Source of the DNA: a virus
IMG/VR virus record: IMGVR_UViG_3300027844_002282
DNA length: 64,000 nt
Strand: one strand, 5' to 3'
In this document: positions 2,755 to 40,541 of the stretch, piece by piece
How the letters are laid out: the number at the start of each line of letters is the position of its first letter
Numbering within the stretch: the stretch's first letter is position 1
Translations under genes and position numbers: made by a program
Notes under the pieces: generated by a model
What the model was told of the DNA's origin: nothing
Database searches by the model: none
Seen by the model: the letters and a program-made list of their open reading frames with translations, nothing else

Positions 2755-4071
2755 TTACACATATTTTTCTAAGATATAACTCGGTAAAACTATTATATTC
2801 TCAACTTCATTGTCATATGTCATCTTGAGTGGAACGTCAAAATATCCATTCCTCTCTACAATTCCACTATGTATAACCTCTCCAGCTATACCGTCATATT
2901 TAGTTCCCGAATCAATGCATGTCATCAGTTTTGATTCTTGCAATGTCATCCTGTCTTTTTCAAGTGATTGTCTTATGGAATCTTCCACACCAGTCTTTGC
3001 GAACGAGACAAATGAGCAAAGCTTGGTTTCAGACTCTCCACCTTTCAACATGACATATACCTTTGTTTTGGTTCCGTCTCTCTTGTCAAATGCTAAAAAT
3101 CTATCTTTTACATAGTCCCCATTCTCTTGTGTCCCAACACTTATGTCGCCATCATTTGGTGGTTCTGGGACTATGATTATATCATCGTTTACCTTGTAAC
3201 TCGATATGGCCTTGAATATCGGATACCATAAATTGTTATAGTATGTCTGAGACATTAATGGGAACTTTGAAATCATATCTCCAAGTGGCTGGACCTTTGT
3301 CATGATCAAGCCCTTATCAAATTCAATACAGAATGGACCCTCATCAGTCGAGAAGTATAAGATATACTCTCCAGTATGCTCTCTATCTATCCCGGAAAAA
3401 GAGGTCTTAAAAGGAAGCCTTTCAATCACATCGTCGCTCATCTCAGATAGGGCTCCAGATATCCATGGAACATCTTTATTGGCCATTACCTGCATCATAG
3501 CTCCAGAGACGTTTGCTTCGAGGAAATCTCCAAAATGAGTTCTGATTTCCTTATATATTTTCTTCAATTTTCTCTTTAACTTGATCGTGTCTTTAGAATA
3601 TGGGCTCTTAACGTCGTGGTATCCTATTTCTAATATATCGATACCCTCTTTTGCATCGTTAACTGACTCGTCCGCCTCAAATTCCGCAATTGTATTAGAC
3701 ATTATTTCGGCATAATTATCTATCATGGTCTTAAAATTGTTAATTTTTGTCTTTAGACTGCCAGATTTACTATCGCCCTTCATATTCTCAATCATATTTA
3801 GGAAAGTCGTCAAAGCCATATTGAATTTATTTATAACCCTTGTTCTGATCTCATCAGGGCTAACCTTGTCTTCATAATCGGCCATTCTCGTCAGTTTGTC
3901 AGAATTCTCCCAATAGAATAGGCTCGCCTTAGAGGTCGCTTCCTGCATAGTTGGATAAGAACCCTCATCACCTATAAAAGGAAGATAATCATCTGAGCAG
4001 AACAGTTCTGTATCTGCATAAATGATTGAAAAAACGTATCCAGCATTCTTTTTATATATTTTTAGATCCAT
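2755..4071 (-). CDS. hypothetical protein co-transcribed with terminase
   Basis: 438-aa ORF with RBS AGGTG; abuts the terminase start. Confidence 0.75.
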   Translation of the reverse strand: MDLKIYKKNAGYVFSIIYADTELFCSDDYLPFIGDEGSYPTMQEATSKASLFYWENSDKLTRMADYEDKVSPDEIRTRVINKFNMALTTFLNMIENMKGDSKSGSLKTKINNFKTMIDNYAEIMSNTIAEFEADESVNDAKEGIDILEIGYHDVKSPYSKDTIKLKRKLKKIYKEIRTHFGDFLEANVSGAMMQVMANKDVPWISGALSEMSDDVIERLPFKTSFSGIDREHTGEYILYFSTDEGPFCIEFDKGLIMTKVQPLGDMISKFPLMSQTYYNNLWYPIFKAISSYKVNDDIIIVPEPPNDGDISVGTQENGDYVKDRFLAFDKRDGTKTKVYVMLKGGESETKLCSFVSFAKTGVEDSIRQSLEKDRMTLQESKLMTCIDSGTKYDGIAGEVIHSGIVERNGYFDVPLKMTYDNEVENIIVLPSYILEKYV

Positions 4072-4134: not shown

Positions 4135-4899
4135 TTAGATATGAGCTTCTACTATGGGTACTTCAATGACTTTTTCATGGAAGAATGAGTGCCCCCAGAG
4201 GCCATCCTCTCCCATACAATCCCCGTGGTCTGAACATAGAATAATATCTGTGTTTTTCATCTTCGGAGATTGAAGTAATCTTTCGATCATTTTATCAAGA
4301 TACTCTATACATCTGATCTGAGCAGATCGACACCGTTTATCACCCCAATTAATTGGCTCATCATTTTCTCGTATCCTATAACTGTGATGAGTTTCTCCAA
4401 AATTCATAAATAAGAAAAACTTCTTATCTGTAGGTAATTCTTCAAGAACATAGTCAATCTGTTTCTTTGCAACCGTGAACTCTCCAAAGAACCCGAACTT
4501 CTTAAAATCGTCAATTGCCGAAATGTGCGCTGGTTTATTTATATTGAACCATCCAACAGCACCAGTTCCAACAGTATCATACCCCTTCATATTGAATCCA
4601 TGAACAATATTTCTCCCGTCAAGTTGAACATGAGCATCTCCGGGGGACTCTGGGTTATTCAATCTCCACCACTGGCGACCATCTGTCTTCCTACCCGATC
4701 TCGCACAAGTATCGAAAGATCCACTACGTGTATGGGGTAATTTTCCAATGAAGAATGAGGTATGAGCCGGTAGAGTATATGTCCCATGTGTAAATGCCTT
4801 TTCAAATGGGAACGATTTTATTGTCGGCAAGTTAGCGTCTCTGAACGTGTCCCATCTTAAACTGTCAAAAACTATTAATGCTTGATTTCTCATTTCCAA
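4135..4899 (-). CDS. sulfatase / alkaline-phosphatase-superfamily hydrolase
   Basis: motifs DSLRWD, TLPAHTS, ETHHSY, SDHG, WGH...EVPI. Confidence 0.8.
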   Translation of the reverse strand: MEMRNQALIVFDSLRWDTFRDANLPTIKSFPFEKAFTHGTYTLPAHTSFFIGKLPHTRSGSFDTCARSGRKTDGRQWWRLNNPESPGDAHVQLDGRNIVHGFNMKGYDTVGTGAVGWFNINKPAHISAIDDFKKFGFFGEFTVAKKQIDYVLEELPTDKKFFLFMNFGETHHSYRIRENDEPINWGDKRCRSAQIRCIEYLDKMIERLLQSPKMKNTDIILCSDHGDCMGEDGLWGHSFFHEKVIEVPIVEAHI

Positions 4900-6125: not shown

Positions 6126-7525
6126 ACCAATTTCTCCAAGAAAGAAGTTTTGTCGTCACTAATGATGATACTTATTTTACCCTTATATTTATCAAGTATG
6201 CTTCTGTACGCTTTTGTTACCCCAGGCCAAGCCTGATTTTTGTAATCGTCAATAGCGATCACTCCGCCCTTAACAACATACGGGAACATCATTCCAAAAT
6301 CAGAATTTACAGCCGCCTCGCTGTGTTCTCCATCTATATACACGAAATTAAATTTTCGCCCTTCTATTTCTTTCTTAAGCTCGCATGAGGGGATGAAAAA
6401 ATGTTTATGGTTGGATAGCTTGGAGATGTGCTCGCAAAATTTTTCTCTAAATTTACCAATATTATTAGCCCCGTCTGTATTTAATCCTCCAGAGGCGAAT
6501 TTATCATTCAGTGGATCACATGAATACAATTCCCAATTTGGGAAAAGTGACATCATCATGTTAGAGATAAAAACAGTCGTCTTCCCAGCCTTCACCCCAA
6601 TCTCACACATATCTCCAACGATGTCTTTTTTCTTAAGCGAGAAAAATATATCTGCCATATCACCCATGACTTGTTTCTGACTTTTTAGATCCTCAACCTT
6701 TTTTGCTTCCCCTATAGCATCCCTAATGATCTTATTTTTCAAAGGTTCTGGGTATACCTCGTTATAGACTTTTCCCTTCTGTCGCCGTTCATTAAGTCTC
6801 TTGAAATGGGGGACATCCATCCAGTTATCTGGCCAGACTTGTGTGGCAGTTTCAATCCTCTTGCAATTCTTAAAATGTAAGTAGCATCTTTTGTCAATTT
6901 TACTCTCAGAAGAAGAATAGTTATTTAAGACTTCGCAGAAATCACCCTGTATATAATAAGACTCCGGGCAAACCTTGAAAACCCTTGGCTCGAATGTCGC
7001 TACCAAGTCTGGACTAAAATGAGAGATGTGATCCCCACTAAGATTTATTCCATGGAAAAACGTCTTCCCAAACTTTTTGTAGTTAGAAAGATCGGCGACC
7101 ATATTTGGCGTGGCTATCATATCACCATCCCACTTACAAACAAAGGATCTACTCGTGAGGGATAAGGACCAATTATAATAGTACGCAAGATCATGTATGG
7201 AGTCTTCTGGAATATCTCTATGACCGGGGCCATTATGATGCATCTTGAAAGGATATTGATATATCTTTATTTTATCAGAGTTAATATTCCTTATAATATT
7301 TTCTGTATTATCTTCCGAGCCATTTAGTGTAACGATTATCTCATCGAAAAACCCAAGTACAGACTGAATACTTGGTAGTATAAACTCTTCTTCGTTCTTT
7401 ATCCTGATCATTGCGGAAATTCCATCTTTCCTATTCTCAAGCCAGTCTTTTTTTATAAAATACTTTTCTACCCCTTCTCTATTTTTAAGATGCATTTTAA
7501 CCTCTATAGAATGGTTCCGAACCAT
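6122..7525 (-). CDS. GT2-like glycosyltransferase fused to Methyltransf_24-type methyltransferase
   Basis: ISAMIRIKNEE, KWDGD (DxD); C-terminal EIGVKAG, YIDGEH, IAIDDY. Confidence 0.8.
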   Translation of the reverse strand: MVRNHSIEVKMHLKNREGVEKYFIKKDWLENRKDGISAMIRIKNEEEFILPSIQSVLGFFDEIIVTLNGSEDNTENIIRNINSDKIKIYQYPFKMHHNGPGHRDIPEDSIHDLAYYYNWSLSLTSRSFVCKWDGDMIATPNMVADLSNYKKFGKTFFHGINLSGDHISHFSPDLVATFEPRVFKVCPESYYIQGDFCEVLNNYSSSESKIDKRCYLHFKNCKRIETATQVWPDNWMDVPHFKRLNERRQKGKVYNEVYPEPLKNKIIRDAIGEAKKVEDLKSQKQVMGDMADIFFSLKKKDIVGDMCEIGVKAGKTTVFISNMMMSLFPNWELYSCDPLNDKFASGGLNTDGANNIGKFREKFCEHISKLSNHKHFFIPSCELKKEIEGRKFNFVYIDGEHSEAAVNSDFGMMFPYVVKGGVIAIDDYKNQAWPGVTKAYRSILDKYKGKISIIISDDKTSFLEKLV

Positions 7526-8325
7526 TTATCTAATTTATCAGACCCTACCGGGATCTGCTTATCAATAAGGGCAGCAAGTAATTTGTCAACCCTATCGGTG
7601 TGAGAATTAACATATCCTATCCCAAGAGATGTCGTGGGAGCGCCAAGCATTAAAGATTCAAGCAAGCATGTTGAATTTATCCCTATCACACGCTTAGAAT
7701 ATCTTGCTATATCTAAAAAATTTCCAGTGCTTGTCACTTTATTTTTGGCAGAACAGGTGACCTTTATTGAATTCGGGTCTAACGGGTGACCCTTGAAAAT
7801 TATTTTGTCTTCTGGATATATCCTTTCAACATAGTTAATCAACGCCTGCATCTTTTTGAAAGGGGAAAACTTCAAAATATTTGTGTCCCCCTCAAGCTGT
7901 AGCGGGCATAGTATATTCTCTCCACCGACCCAAGGTTTACCACCAATGTATTTTTTTTTGAAATCTTCTAAAGATTTAATATGTGCATCCGTTATCCATG
8001 ATAAGTCATCTGACATCAAAGATCCATGCCCATTTATACCCATAGTGTCAACAAAATAGTTCGATCTTTGCGGAAACCATCCAACCTCAACAATCCGATG
8101 CGGAATGTTCAATTTTCTACAAAGGTGTTTGATATGGCTTGTCGATTCCATTTCACCATTCCATATCATTACAAAATCATACCTCTTGCTTGTAAGCTCA
8201 GATTCTGTAATCCTCTTTCGACAAACATTTATTTCAACTATATGACCCTTGTTTTTGCAATACGATTCAAAGCCTTTAAGCCATGGACCAAAATGATCAT
8301 CGAAATAGTCATAAAACCCTACCAT
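7504..8325 (-). CDS. capsular polysaccharide (KpsS/KpsC-like) GT-B protein
   Basis: motifs IWNG, EVGWFP, PLQLEGD, KGHP, INSTCLLE. Confidence 0.7.
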   Translation of the reverse strand: MVGFYDYFDDHFGPWLKGFESYCKNKGHIVEINVCRKRITESELTSKRYDFVMIWNGEMESTSHIKHLCRKLNIPHRIVEVGWFPQRSNYFVDTMGINGHGSLMSDDLSWITDAHIKSLEDFKKKYIGGKPWVGGENILCPLQLEGDTNILKFSPFKKMQALINYVERIYPEDKIIFKGHPLDPNSIKVTCSAKNKVTSTGNFLDIARYSKRVIGINSTCLLESLMLGAPTTSLGIGYVNSHTDRVDKLLAALIDKQIPVGSDKLDKWFGTIL

Positions 8326-37106: not shown

Positions 37107-38159
37107 AGGGAGGGGAATTATGACAGAAATCACAGAAAAACAAGAAAACACCACATAATCACAACACTTTAGCGGACCAAACAGAAGATTGGAAAGCTCA
37201 AATAATATATATTACAAAACAATGAGTTTGATTCTCCAGAAGAAGCGGCAGAATATATCGAACAATATGTCAAAGATGTTAAGGAGTTGAATCATTTGAC
37301 GAAGAAGTTCAATATTCTCGGATATTCTCACGAAAGTGAAATGAGCGTGGGGCAACAAAAGGGTTTTGTAGGAAGTTTTGGCCCACTAATGGAGCAGTTG
37401 GCGGATATTGGCAGAAGAGAGTTGGAAAAGAAAGGAAGGAATAGCACCCCTATTTATTGAAAATATAACTATGTCTAATATGGCATAATTCAATAGGGGG
37501 GATAAAGTTATGGCAACCAAAGCCACGAATTCCAGGAAAAAGACTCCAACAAAATCGCGTACTCCAGCCAAGAAGCCCGCCGTGTCTGTAAAAGAAGACC
37601 CCAAGGTAAAAAAGACTGGTGTGTTTAGAGAGTCAAGGGTGATTATTTCATTTTGCATCGTTGCAATCATGTTTATTATCATTGTTTTGCAAGGCAAAGA
37701 AATCAGTGGTATAAAAAACTCCACTGATATTAATAGAACGCTAATTGCCCAAACGGATGACAAAGTCGCCGCAAACGTTAGTAAAATCCTAACGATATCA
37801 AGTGATATCGAGAAATTAAAGAAAAGATCCGCCTTCGCGGTAAAAAAAAAAGAGTGAGGTAGTCACATCAGAATCTGTCCCAATACCGACCATAGACCCC
37901 AATGTGACATTAAAGGTATTCGAAGATGTCGAAAGCCTCGAAGAGTTCACGCTTGATGTCACGACAGTGGAGCCCGCCCCTCCGGTAGAGACATGGTACG
38001 TAGAAGATAAGCCAGCCCTACTGAAGCCACGTTCGTGGAGGTGTAAAGCCCCATGGAAATGGAAGATTTGGTAGAAAAGATGTAGAATCTTTGTGTAAGA
38101 GCTTGACATTGCCCTTTTGAGAGGCTATGTTGTATCTCAGTTTGAAAATAGAATAGTTT

Positions 38160-38286
38160 GTGGTTTCCAGTTTCCGTAAAAACTGGTGGTGGAGGGTATA
38201 GCGATTCAAACCGTTTTTGCCCCTGGCTACAAGGAGTCGTTTTATTGGGTTAAGCACCTTGTCAATGCTAACCCAGATTTTCCACA
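38160..38286 (+). ncRNA. structured RNA immediately upstream of tmRNA
   Basis: tgtgg/ccaca closing stem; hairpins ccagttt/aaactgg and gggtta/taaccc; caagg-ccttg possible pseudoknot. Confidence 0.45.
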
Positions 38287-38292
38287 TTTTGT

Positions 38293-38997
38293 GGGGACGT
38301 AACAGGTATTCGACTAGAATGGTAGAATATCAATTGCATGTCGAGGATGACTGTTGGCCTCGTTAAACATCAGTTAAAAAACATAAAAGCGAACAACGAA
38401 GAAATCCTTCAGTTCCCTGGTCTTGATGCAGGTTTTGCAGCACCAGTAGAGGCTCCGGCCTTTGCAATCGCTGCCTAATTAGTTGACAGACTAACTCGGC
38501 CTTAATTGAGCCGAGCGCTTAACGGATGGACCCTTGATAAATCCGTAAGCGACAAAAATCGAGGAAAGCGCTTGATACTGACTCACCTGAGTTGAGAGTG
38601 AAAGTTTTAGGTGATCGTCATACTGCCAGTTGGTGTTAATACCTGCGAATGTAATACGGCACAGACTAAAAGATAGCAAAATTAACTATACATGTAGACG
38701 TTGATATAAAGTTGTTTTAGGACGCGGGTTCGATCAAATTGGTCGCCATGAGAAGTGATTCTCATTGGAAACTGAGAGCTTTCACGGTGAAAGCTAAGTT
38801 GAGTAATCAATATGCCAACGCCGTATGGTGAATCTGAAAAGAGGAAGCCATCTAGAGACTTATAGAGTCCTAAGGTATTTATACTATGGATCACTAGGAT
38901 GGGTAAAACCATAACACGCTCTCCCCTGACTTGTCAGGTGAAGAAATAGTCCTTGCCAGGTGAAAGTCTGGGTGTACAAGCCCCGCCGTCTCCACCA
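38293..38997 (+). ncRNA. ssrA: tmRNA (intron-containing); tag ANNEEILQFPGLDAGFAAPVEAPAFAIAA at 38389-38478
   Basis: GGGGAC...TCGAC 5' end; G3:U acceptor with gtctccACCA 3' end; tag ends IAA; T arm split. Confidence 0.93.
38735..38980 (+). mobile_element. group I intron in tmRNA T-loop
   Basis: 5' exon ends in U with P1 cgat/gtcg (U-G pair); R element AGAGACT, S element AAGAAATAGTCC; terminal G; splicing restores gcggg-ttcgatc-cccgc. Confidence 0.88.
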
Positions 38998-39002
38998 ATA
39001 TG

Positions 39003-39040
39003 AAAAAGGCTGAGTGCCTATAAAGCACTCAGTCTTTTTT
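39003..39040 (+). terminator. intrinsic terminator after tmRNA
   Basis: aaaaaggctgagtgc-loop-gcactcagtctttttt. Confidence 0.85.
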
Positions 39041-39114
39041 GTTTTCGAAGGGAATTGTTTTAATAAGAAGGCCCTTCGCCTCCACCTGTAGTATAATATG
39101 TTAGAGGTGATAAG

Positions 39115-39690
39115 ATGGCAAAAGAGAAAATAAAATGCGCTAACCCAGCATGTGAAAAAATTTTTGAAAAAGAAAGGAAAGAAATAAATAGAAGCGAGAG
39201 ACTTGGGAGGCTTCAATATTGTTGCTCTTCTTGTTATGGGAACCACAGGGGGAAGAACGCCTTGAAGTTCGTGTCGGAAGAAAATATTAAAAGGAATCAA
39301 ATAAATATTAAAAACTATTGTGGAAACAATAGAGATGGGTTTACAAGGTTTAGATATTTTCTAAAAAATTATAGAACAAGGGGCAAAGAAAGGCCTCAGA
39401 AAAAAGGGGATATAGACCTGGAATTCTTAAAATCACTATGGGAGTCTCAGAAAGGCATTTGCCCTATTACTGGATGGAATATGGTTTTGCCAAACTCTAT
39501 TGCCGGATGGGAAGACAAAGGTATGATGAGAGCGAGTCTTGATAGAATCAACTCTAATTTTGGGTACTTTAAAAATAACGTCAGATTCGTTTGTTTTATT
39601 GCAAACATTGCCAAAAACAATTTTTCAGATAATGATTTATTAAAATTTTGCGAGGCCGCGACAAAATTTAACAAAAAGTCAGATTTATAA
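39115..39690 (+). CDS. HNH-type (homing) endonuclease with N-terminal Zn-binding Cys motifs
   Basis: CANPAC...YCCSSC; CPITG...SLDRINSNFGY...NVRFVC...N. Confidence 0.75.
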   Translation: MAKEKIKCANPACEKIFEKERKEINRSERLGRLQYCCSSCYGNHRGKNALKFVSEENIKRNQINIKNYCGNNRDGFTRFRYFLKNYRTRGKERPQKKGDIDLEFLKSLWESQKGICPITGWNMVLPNSIAGWEDKGMMRASLDRINSNFGYFKNNVRFVCFIANIAKNNFSDNDLLKFCEAATKFNKKSDL

Positions 39691-39713
39691 ATGTCTATCT
39701 TTTTGTTTCCACA

Positions 39714-40541
39714 ATGTATAATCATATCAAATCTAAGGAGAGACCTATGCTATTAAGTAAAGATGGAAAGAGAAATATTATAGACAGAGTCACTGTTACT
39801 GGTGCAGATGACAATACAGACATTGACAATATGGTAGAGGTCTACGATGAATACCCCTTTGTTGAATGGGGTATTTTGCTATCACGCGAACAAATTGATG
39901 GAAACAGATTCCCCAGCTTTGATTGGATGAGAGATCTTTATAACATTTCTTCGCAAGAAGACCGATTCTTTAACATCGGTGGGTGGACTTGTAAAAAGCA
40001 ATTCCCCCTGTCTGGGCACATTTGCGGAAGCTGGGTTGACCAGATCCAAAAAGTTGGGTGGAAAAATTTCTTCAACTCCTTAGATAGAAATATGAAAAAT
40101 ATATTTGCGATGTTTTCAAGGCTCCAAATAAATCTTCATGGGGAAACCCCAAAAGTTACGGACGAGTTCTACAATGGGTTTTACGACCCGTCATTTGTAG
40201 GGAAACAAATAATCATACAAGAGAGCGGTGAAAGTAAAGACATTGTTGAAAGGCTTAGGCTTCGGGGAGTTAACGCGACATTGCTATTTGATAACTCCCA
40301 CGGTGCCGGAGTGTTACCTGGTGGTTGGCCAGACAGGAATGTTCCAGGATATATTGGATATGCTGGTGGCCTCGGACCAAAAAATGTCGCAGAAGAAATT
40401 CCAAAAATAGAAAAGTCATCGGGCGATGAGAAAATATGGATTGATGCTGAAACAAAGGTAAGGGATGGCGTTGGAGATCTTGACATGAATTTGACAAGGG
40501 AATTATTAAAGAAATCAGAACCGTTTATTATAGGACGATAA
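39714..40541 (+). CDS. TIM-barrel protein, phosphoribosylanthranilate isomerase-like
   Basis: TGADD, LFDNSHGAG, GYAGGLGP, WIDAETKVR. Confidence 0.7.
   Translation: MYNHIKSKERPMLLSKDGKRNIIDRVTVTGADDNTDIDNMVEVYDEYPFVEWGILLSREQIDGNRFPSFDWMRDLYNISSQEDRFFNIGGWTCKKQFPLSGHICGSWVDQIQKVGWKNFFNSLDRNMKNIFAMFSRLQINLHGETPKVTDEFYNGFYDPSFVGKQIIIQESGESKDIVERLRLRGVNATLLFDNSHGAGVLPGGWPDRNVPGYIGYAGGLGPKNVAEEIPKIEKSSGDEKIWIDAETKVRDGVGDLDMNLTRELLKKSEPFIIGR

Follow-up and report, generated by a model that had tools for sequence, protein, structure and literature searches.

A spliced group I intron and a predicted homing endonuclease of tmRNA 3' ends meet at the transfer-messenger RNA gene of a marine phage

Why should one end of a phage gene for transfer-messenger RNA (tmRNA) hold both a group I intron and, directly beside it, a free-standing gene for a nuclease? 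The question is raised by a stretch of viral DNA of 64,000 nucleotides (IMG/VR virus record IMGVR_UViG_3300027844_002282; the whole stretch is referred to here as the window), in which the tmRNA gene at 38293–38997 is split within its T-loop, after loop base 6, and is followed by a gene for a protein of 191 amino acids (aa). An earlier model-made reading of the letters (the sequence-only reading) had taken intron and nuclease for a collaborative homing pair. The reading that we favour, at a probability of roughly three in four, is that the phage tmRNA carries a spliced, IA-like intron, that the neighboring protein belongs to a family of free-standing homing endonucleases found at the T-arm/CCA ends of tmRNA genes, and that two selfish elements have converged on this gene. 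The parts of the locus that carry the argument are:

38293..38734, + strand: tmRNA exon 1 (5' acceptor strand, tag template, pseudoknot region, 5' half of the T-arm, T-loop bases 1–6), from RF00023 and from ARAGORN after in-silico splicing
38735..38980, + strand: group I intron of 246 nt without an open reading frame (ORF), with the terminal G at 38980, from a sub-threshold Rfam match, a minimum free energy (MFE) fold with manually placed helices, and precise excision in RNA
38981..38997, + strand: tmRNA exon 2 (T-loop base 7, 3' T-stem strand, 3' acceptor strand, ACCA), from the sequence, and joined to exon 1 in an RNA contig
39115..39690, + strand: free-standing gene for a predicted nuclease of 191 aa, with an N-terminal zinc ribbon (C8, C13, C36, C40) and a C-terminal PacI-like His-Me-finger domain (D143, R144, Y151, N155, N164), from PHROG 3322, the family alignment, profile and structure

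The Rfam model RF00023 matched positions 38303–38736 with 91.9 bits (E 1.8e-34, threshold 47), a score that was reached despite the displacement of the 3' end by the intron. The last 15 positions of the model, which represent the 3' T-stem strand and the acceptor strand, have no counterpart in this match. The absent 3' piece was found at 38981–38997 and pairs with the 5' acceptor strand (38293–38299) in an acceptor stem of 7 bp that includes a G3:U pair; the 3' end is ACCA. The tRNA-Ala-like domain, comprising acceptor stem, T-arm and ACCA, forms only after position 38734 is joined to 38981. ARAGORN called no tmRNA on the genomic sequence and, once 38735–38980 had been removed in silico, called a tmRNA of 459 nt with 5' and 3' tRNA domains. 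The proposal of the sequence-only reading that a group I intron splits the tmRNA in its T-loop is borne out by RF00023, by ARAGORN after the in-silico removal and by the intron helices that could be placed. Standard annotation (ARAGORN, or Rfam at gathering thresholds) misses or truncates this gene.

The helices of the intron were placed on a single sequence, by MFE folding and by hand:

38746-54/38759-68, + strand: P2, with a GUGA loop
38774-79/38918-23, + strand: P3
38784-89/38819-24, + strand: P4
38798-802/38807-11, + strand: P5, with a GUAA loop
38825-29/38847-51, + strand: P6
38857-60/38948-51, + strand: P7, with the pair G38857-C38951 beside the bulged A38856
inside 38868-38912, + strand: P7.1 and P7.2
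38925-29/38934-38, + strand: P8
38956-61/38966-71, + strand: P9, with a GAAA loop

The base preceding the intron, U38734, can form a wobble pair with G38742 in a short P1 of 4–5 bp. The conserved core could be placed (P3 to P8, the P3/P7 pseudoknot, the guanosine-binding pair of P7 beside a bulged A, and J8/7), and the J8/7–P7 stretch agrees with the Rfam consensus. The presence of P7.1 and P7.2 suggests that the intron belongs to an IA-like subgroup. No ORF of at least 40 aa was found on the intron's own strand. Sequence and fold agree with the earlier description of a 246-nt ORF-less intron with a U-G pair in P1 and a terminal G, the excision of which restores the T-arm.

Group I introns in the T-loop of tmRNA genes are known from bacteria. 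Such intron-form genes were first found in Clostridium botulinum and now number 883 sequences from 21 phyla, most of which use the site termed position 7 (PMC11915505). The insertion in the window occupies the same site of the same gene, as internucleotide position 7 in the numbering of the tmRNA database lies between T-loop bases 6 and 7. It further shares with the bacterial genes the U before the 5' splice site that is paired to a G in P1, the terminal G, the P7.1 region and the lack of an ORF (most of the bacterial introns are ORF-less), and at 246 nt it is short compared to their mean of 293 nt. Unlike the bacterial genes, the one in the window is carried by a large marine phage and has a gene for a putative tmRNA-homing nuclease just downstream. 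Phage are not mentioned in the text supplementary files of PMC11915505, and a phage host for an intron-form tmRNA may be new.

Eight seawater metatranscriptome runs were found to contain part of the stretch, and three RNA runs (X13, X14 and X15) as well as one DNA run were compared with positions 38100–39800. Run X15 contains a contig of 447 nt (word depth 20.7) that matches 38303–38735 and continues with 14 letters identical to 38982–38995. Because base 38735 equals base 38981, this contig represents exon 1 joined to exon 2 exactly at the predicted junction. The ligated sequence reads GGTTCGAT up to the junction and CCCCGCC after it, and the contig ends 2 nt before the CCA end. The same run contains a contig that spans the intron (38708–38993) at a depth of 3.8, below that of the spliced contig, and run X13 contains an unspliced contig ending at 38982, as expected at an assembly branch point.

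These contigs could also be explained without a working ribozyme, if the joined form derived from an intron-less DNA allele or from an assembly artefact. The sub-threshold Rfam score of the 246-nt insert, its modest fold z-score (-2.3), the short match past the junction and the fact that DNA can occur in RNA libraries would all be compatible with this. However, the junction falls exactly at the U/G boundaries predicted from the structure, the 14 letters match exon 2 perfectly, and all core helices and a G-binding P7 are present in the insert. Moreover, nine DNA runs contain 97–100% of the sampled words, intron included (the contigs of DNA run X10 break within the region, but such gaps carry no weight as evidence). 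Metagenome contigs were also scanned for the ligated 25-mer, which gave 47 contigs, all of which carry unrelated bacterial-type ssrA genes and none of which resembles the phage flanks. As the DNA runs contain the intron and the 47 contigs are unrelated to the phage, the joined form is best explained by RNA splicing, and we regard an inert insert as scarcely credible. The intron is removed by splicing in nature, with the very junction that the sequence-only reading had predicted. Public metatranscriptomes in this way give direct evidence from nature for the splicing of a phage-borne intron-form tmRNA.

The nuclease gene starts 118 nt past the CCA end of the tmRNA. Its 191-aa product matched no entry of Pfam or NCBIfam at E up to 0.1, and thus no curated HNH family model; matches in PHROG were 3322 'endonuclease' (5.9e-19), 3118 'HNH endonuclease' and 1035 'endonuclease VII'. 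When 22 homologues were aligned, a Cys4 finger became apparent at the N-terminus and a block with an invariant S-L-D-R-I motif at the C-terminus; residues D143, R144, Y151 and N155 do not vary among the 22 sequences, with N164 almost invariant. Searching solved structures by profile related the N-terminus to MYM/L24e-type zinc fingers and the C-terminus to PacI (E 0.011), with the invariant D, R, Y and N residues aligned to the DR..GY..N..N pattern of PacI. The AlphaFold2 model of the protein (predicted local distance difference test, pLDDT, 86.5) contains strands at residues 139–144 and 156–160, followed by a helix. Its best structural match was PacI (Z 6.7 over 112 residues), with many HNH domains next (Z 3–4.6); the Foldseek matches were all HNH domains, but weak (E 0.1–1).

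In PacI-like His-Me fingers the catalytic His is absent and a tyrosine of the omega loop takes its place (PMC5714182). PacI (PDB 3ldy and 3m7k; His-Me finger group 20) was the only nuclease found by the profile search, and it has the DR..GY..N..N pattern without a catalytic His in common with the protein of the window. The two are about 14% identical, and PacI is bacterial and has an N-terminal domain resembling a helix-turn-helix, whereas the family of the window is phage-borne and has a zinc ribbon. On the basis of the profile, fold and invariant-residue matches to PacI, the protein can be placed among the HNH-type nucleases in a wide sense, in the PacI-like branch; it is a predicted nuclease with a modeled His-Me finger that is closest to PacI. 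The HNH-type nuclease that the sequence-only reading had seen next to the tmRNA is retained under this narrower description.

A profile scan of IMG/VR gave about 290 relatives of the nuclease in viral contigs, and the best 80 of these 290 loci were fetched and examined with ARAGORN and Rfam. A tmRNA gene lies directly beside the nuclease gene in 71 of the 80 loci, and in 45 of the 49 clusters formed at 90% identity, in the following arrangements:

58 loci: standard tmRNA upstream, same strand
5 loci: standard tmRNA downstream, convergent
7 loci: permuted two-piece tmRNA directly downstream, acceptor piece first
1 locus: mini-tmRNA of 69 nt

In all arrangements the nuclease gene borders on the T-arm/CCA end of its tmRNA neighbor, and in the permuted genes the acceptor piece lies about 20 nt past the nuclease stop codon. 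None of the 71 adjoining tmRNA genes is interrupted by an intron, and the nuclease family is therefore independent of introns. No repeated association of nuclease and intron was seen from genome to genome; their pairing in the window is a single co-occurrence.

Comparison of tmRNA loci with and without the nuclease points to insertion of the gene as a cassette. In a generic scan for tmRNA 3' ends in viral contigs, 118 loci were recovered, none of which contains a member of the family, and several are syntenic with phages that do. Sporadic presence at one site among syntenic relatives was found for locus L003: L177, L150 and L125 match it on both sides and lack about 635 nt (alignment A2). This segment of L003 starts inside the 3' T-stem strand, supplies the functional 3' end and contains the nuclease gene; it is followed by a 12-nt remnant of the original tmRNA 3' end, and the T-arm of L003 shows compensatory changes compared to its relatives. 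In three further loci (L011, L012 and L013), the tmRNA sequence from the T-loop to the 3' end recurs without mismatch 3 nt past the stop codon (a match of 16 nt was scored in each; in L012, 17 nt can be read and the repeat length is about 608 nt), and none of 200 control windows matched as well. The insertion junctions of the cassettes, in the T-loop or in the 3' T-stem strand, are located 2–6 bases from the intron site of the window.

One feature of L012 concerns the maturation of the RNA. The working 3' end supplied by the cassette (3920–3945) has no encoded CCA, whereas the displaced original (4529–4550) has one; a gene bearing this cassette would therefore depend on a CCA-adding enzyme.

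The spacer before the nuclease gene contains a further element:

39083..39109, + strand: hairpin that pairs the Shine-Dalgarno sequence of the nuclease gene, with a TATAAT -10-like box (39092–39097) in its upper part, from folding and from the same layout in related loci

In about 22 of 27 related loci a spacer hairpin pairs the Shine-Dalgarno sequence, and often the AUG as well, and has a TATAAT-like box in or near its loop, with z-scores down to -7.4. The homing endonuclease genes of phage T4 are organized in this manner, with a hairpin that sequesters the ribosome-binding site and a promoter inside it (PMC2988022). The separate promoter that the sequence-only reading had given to the nuclease gene is found as the TATAAT-like box in the hairpin; the AGG-N19-GTA motif that it had pointed out is at chance level, with 22 occurrences in the window versus 18.6 expected. 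A CTCCAC-like motif that recurs in the spacers was considered as a decayed copy of the tmRNA 3' end and rejected, as it is the anti-Shine-Dalgarno arm of the hairpin.

Based on the adjacency to tmRNA genes, the syntenic phages that are free of the gene, the displaced 3' ends and the promoter-bearing hairpin, the nuclease is most readily understood as a free-standing homing endonuclease with tmRNA 3' ends as its target. The adjacency could also be that of a working partner of the phage tmRNA, such as a processing, binding or SmpB-like factor, instead of a selfish nuclease. It is very tight and widespread and involves tmRNA genes of three forms, and the N-terminal zinc ribbon resembles ribosomal L24e and FCS-type fingers. 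Syntenic phages, however, retain their tmRNA without the nuclease gene, and the family is absent from all 118 other tmRNA loci. The orientation of the gene varies, yet the tmRNA 3' end always faces it. In addition, displaced 3'-end copies mark insertion events, the regulation is of the homing-endonuclease type, and the invariant residues are of the catalytic type of a DNA nuclease. A partner role is, in our view, very improbable.

Across the insertion point, at the T-arm/acceptor end of the spliced phage tmRNA, a sequence of 25 bp is identical in marine bacterial ssrA genes. The target of the nuclease might accordingly be the host chromosome, for instance the ssrA gene of the host, so that the phage tmRNA would replace host trans-translation and the enzyme would serve as a restriction-like weapon instead of a homing device; the sequence-only reading had named the host's ssrA allele as a possible target. 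PacI itself is an enzyme of restriction, and a host-degrading role has been suggested for viral PacI-like proteins (PMC5714182). Against such a role, the presence/absence pattern and the target duplications in phage tmRNA genes point to spread from phage to phage. Furthermore, the family is almost absent from bacterial genomes, with only 3 loci, all on contigs of metagenome-assembled genomes, among 185,579 prokaryotic species genomes, and there is thus no trace of an invasion of host ssrA. We consider an attack on the host improbable. Cleavage of the host gene cannot be inferred from the 25-bp identity; the shared end possibly hints at the source of the tmRNA gene or at the host group. The bacterial-type ssrA genes concerned (metagenome contigs L281–L327) encode tags such as ANDENYALAA and ANDNNYAIAA, and none is accompanied by the nuclease.

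The favored reading, with a homing endonuclease and an intron as separate selfish elements, suggests the following course of events. In infected cells the intron splices out to yield the tmRNA of 459 nt, with a tag ending in AIAA. The nuclease gene sits behind a terminator, with its own promoter inside a hairpin that hides the ribosome-binding site. Judging from the comparison of loci, the enzyme would cleave cassette-free tmRNA genes, either within the DNA of the T-arm and 3' acceptor or close to it, and would spread by repair, as repair from the cassette-bearing allele would copy the nuclease gene in. In some lineages the cassette would supply a replacement 3' end for the RNA. The likeliest account of the window phage is that intron and nuclease, each a selfish element, have converged on the same stretch of about 25 bp.

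The sequence-only reading had tied the two elements more closely, as a collaborative homing pair. In a dedicated pair of this kind, the intron insertion site of intron-less tmRNA genes would be the point of cleavage, the resident gene would be protected by its intron, and both elements would spread as one co-adapted unit. There is a proven precedent in cyanophage S-PM2, where F-CphI and the psbA intron engage in 'collaborative homing': the intron blocks self-cleavage and the nuclease mobilizes the intron (Zeng, Bonocora & Shub 2009; PMC6083498). The position of the cassette junctions so near the intron site would suit a pair of this kind, as would the distance between intron and nuclease gene (about 135–380 bp), which is short enough for a co-conversion tract, and the family member of crAss-like phage cr6_1 is also flush against a group I intron. 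On the other hand, not one of the 71 family-linked tmRNA genes has an intron, and a second example of the window intron was not found. Moreover, T-loop position 7 is the common site of introns in tmRNA genes of bacteria that lack the nuclease (PMC11915505), so the intron has its own history. A dedicated pair is doubtful on this evidence: the family does behave like a homing endonuclease directed at tmRNA 3' ends, and the tie to the intron is not supported.

A less exclusive connection is conceivable, and we put it forward tentatively. The window intron could be an immunity device and a passenger of a tmRNA-homing nuclease that recognizes about 25 bp from the T-loop to the CCA end; by splitting the nuclease site it may confer immunity, and it may be co-converted with the nuclease gene into intron-less tmRNA genes. 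Intron-mediated immunity and co-conversion are plausible because the cassettes of relatives insert only a few bases away from the intron site, and also by analogy with F-CphI and the psbA intron. The protective role is weakened because the other family-linked tmRNAs have no intron and position 7 is the general home of tmRNA introns. If true, collaborative homing would have a second natural case, and its first in a gene for a non-coding RNA, and there would be two alternative strategies of rescue at one target, a spare 3' end and a self-splicing intron.

Several observations weigh against the reading of the locus as a spliced intron beside a tmRNA-homing nuclease. The spliced form is represented by one contig from one run, with only 14 letters past the junction. 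The Rfam model Intron_gpI (RF00028) gives the intron only 22.9 bits (E 0.0019 in a search of 901 nt), with a gathering score of 50; a survey of bacterial tRNA introns used a 20-bit cut-off with this model because its seed contains no bacterial sequences (bioRxiv 10.1101/2020.01.27.920355). Among 76 viral contigs with the 15-mer of J8/7–P7, none resembles the intron elsewhere, and since no homologous intron was found, the intron is without covariation support. As to the nuclease, no displaced copy of the 3' end follows its gene in the window (best 9/16, not significant), and close relatives of the window phage for a presence/absence test were not found. The tmRNAs that bear the homing endonuclease gene often keep a canonical T-arm, which leaves the avoidance of self-cleavage unexplained in most lineages. 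Within the family, seven of the 80 loci (L022/27, L053/58, L049 and L051/52) show no tmRNA, the nuclease genes of L051/52 adjoin tRNA-Arg genes rather than a tmRNA, and the crAss-like members are located among other structured RNAs and not beside a tmRNA. The two further loci of the 80 without a tmRNA call are L064, which like L049 is cut at the locus end, and L061, which was outside the Rfam scan.

Mobile elements that replace the end of the gene they enter are known from mitochondria: the mORF of Allomyces atp6 is a mobile endonuclease ORF that carries a replacement gene terminus. Like this element, the cassettes of L003 and L011–L013 supply a new 3' end and push the old end downstream. Unlike the Allomyces case, which concerns a protein-coding mitochondrial gene, the gene in the window would be rescued by its intron, and no displaced end is visible.

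The closest parallel to the window as a whole is F-CphI with the psbA intron, as both have a free-standing nuclease gene beside a gene with an ORF-less group I intron in a marine phage. The predicted target in the window is, in contrast, a non-coding RNA gene, and the nuclease family is found mostly beside intron-less genes. The proteins differ as well, since F-CphI has an Endo VII motif with Cys clusters and DHDH, and the window protein is PacI-like with Tyr replacing His. A relationship of the nuclease to F-CphI was ruled out on these motif grounds, F-CphI being a member of the Endo VII-motif family. Among T4-like phages, SegB is encoded in a tRNA cluster and MobE drives trans-homing of the defunct I-TevIII intron (PMC2988022, PMC2790892). 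The window family resembles these free-standing homing endonucleases in being encoded by intergenic, apparently selfish genes beside the target, with a promoter-containing hairpin that occludes the ribosome-binding site. The target of SegB, too, is a region of tRNA genes. The T4-like enzymes belong to different nuclease families (GIY-YIG, classical HNH), and neither insert inside an RNA gene nor supply a replacement end.

A search of the literature on HNH or homing endonucleases linked to phage tmRNA genes yielded nothing relevant. Intron-form tmRNA genes are already known, as are free-standing homing endonucleases beside intron-bearing genes; new are the RNA evidence that the intron is spliced and the co-occurrence of an intron and a tmRNA-linked nuclease at a single site. 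What had appeared as an HNH gene next door can be re-read as belonging to a large family of PacI-like phage nucleases, which would home to tmRNA 3' ends. With an intron and a nuclease on the same few bases, the locus offers a clean test system for the sharing of a target by selfish elements. The same system could show how the nuclease spares the gene that hosts it, and whether homing carries tmRNA genes from one phage to another.

Some members of the family have other surroundings. In L051 and L052 (4363–4529) the nuclease stop codon adjoins the 3' ends of two convergent tRNA-Arg genes, which suggests that the family can also settle at ordinary tRNA 3' ends. The neighbors of the full-length crAss-like members (L081, which is cr56_1, L082, and L083, which is cr6_1) are RAGATH-9, RAGATH-20 and RAGATH-7-associated RNAs and a Hatchet ribozyme. 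A group I intron (Rfam 96.7 bits, L083 3003–3262, minus strand) overlaps, convergently, with the 3' end of the nuclease gene in cr6_1. L216 encodes a distant member of the family (6990–7640; E 3.6e-5), the end of which is about 120 nt ahead of a sequence matching the J8/7–P7 15-mer, and may represent another nuclease-intron neighborhood. The mini-tmRNA of 69 nt (L045, 4521–4589; Rfam 57.7 bits) comprises the tRNA-like domain only and directly follows a family member. In this it is reminiscent of a tmRNA without coding part in mycobacteriophage DS6A (PMC11915505). A truncated member (residues 79–187 only) is located about 745 nt downstream of a tmRNA in L043 (2703–4351), possibly as a decaying cassette.

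The remaining features of the tmRNA gene and of its surroundings in the window are:

38389..38478, + strand: tag reading frame, with the resume codon GCG from the Rfam consensus alignment and 29 codons to AIAA, then TAA
38103..38131, + strand: sigma-70-like promoter 5' of the tmRNA leader, a 10/12 match to the consensus and a consensus match only
39003..39041, + strand: terminator-like hairpin with flanking A and T runs and its stem at 39010–39032, from folding

With the resume codon GCG placed at 38389 by the Rfam alignment, the tag begins with ANNEE and ends with AIAA, before the TAA at 38476. Its template is unusually long, with 29 codons versus the usual number of about 10, provided that the Rfam-aligned resume codon is correct; ARAGORN gives a shorter alternative in the same frame, APAFAIAA. 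Contigs from the RNA libraries begin at about 38101 and 38179 and extend into the tmRNA, so that a leader of about 130–160 nt ahead of the tmRNA 5' end is covered by the same contigs as the tmRNA. Between the terminator and the regulatory hairpin, an additional hairpin of 7 pairs with a 19-nt loop is located at 39048–39080.

A tmRNA is present in about 2.3% of phage genomes (PMC9004378). The window is part of a large marine phage and contains a large-terminase gene at 1001–2752, a tRNA array at 16.8–29.4 kb and a gene for a CCA-adding enzyme. A blastn search of GenBank phages with 38200–39750 gave no match, and single-protein scans of IMG/VR with the nuclease and with a 275-aa protein encoded downstream identified no close relatives of the phage. 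The stretch itself is present in seawater metagenomes from many studies, and an identical 191-aa nuclease protein is encoded on 13 contigs.

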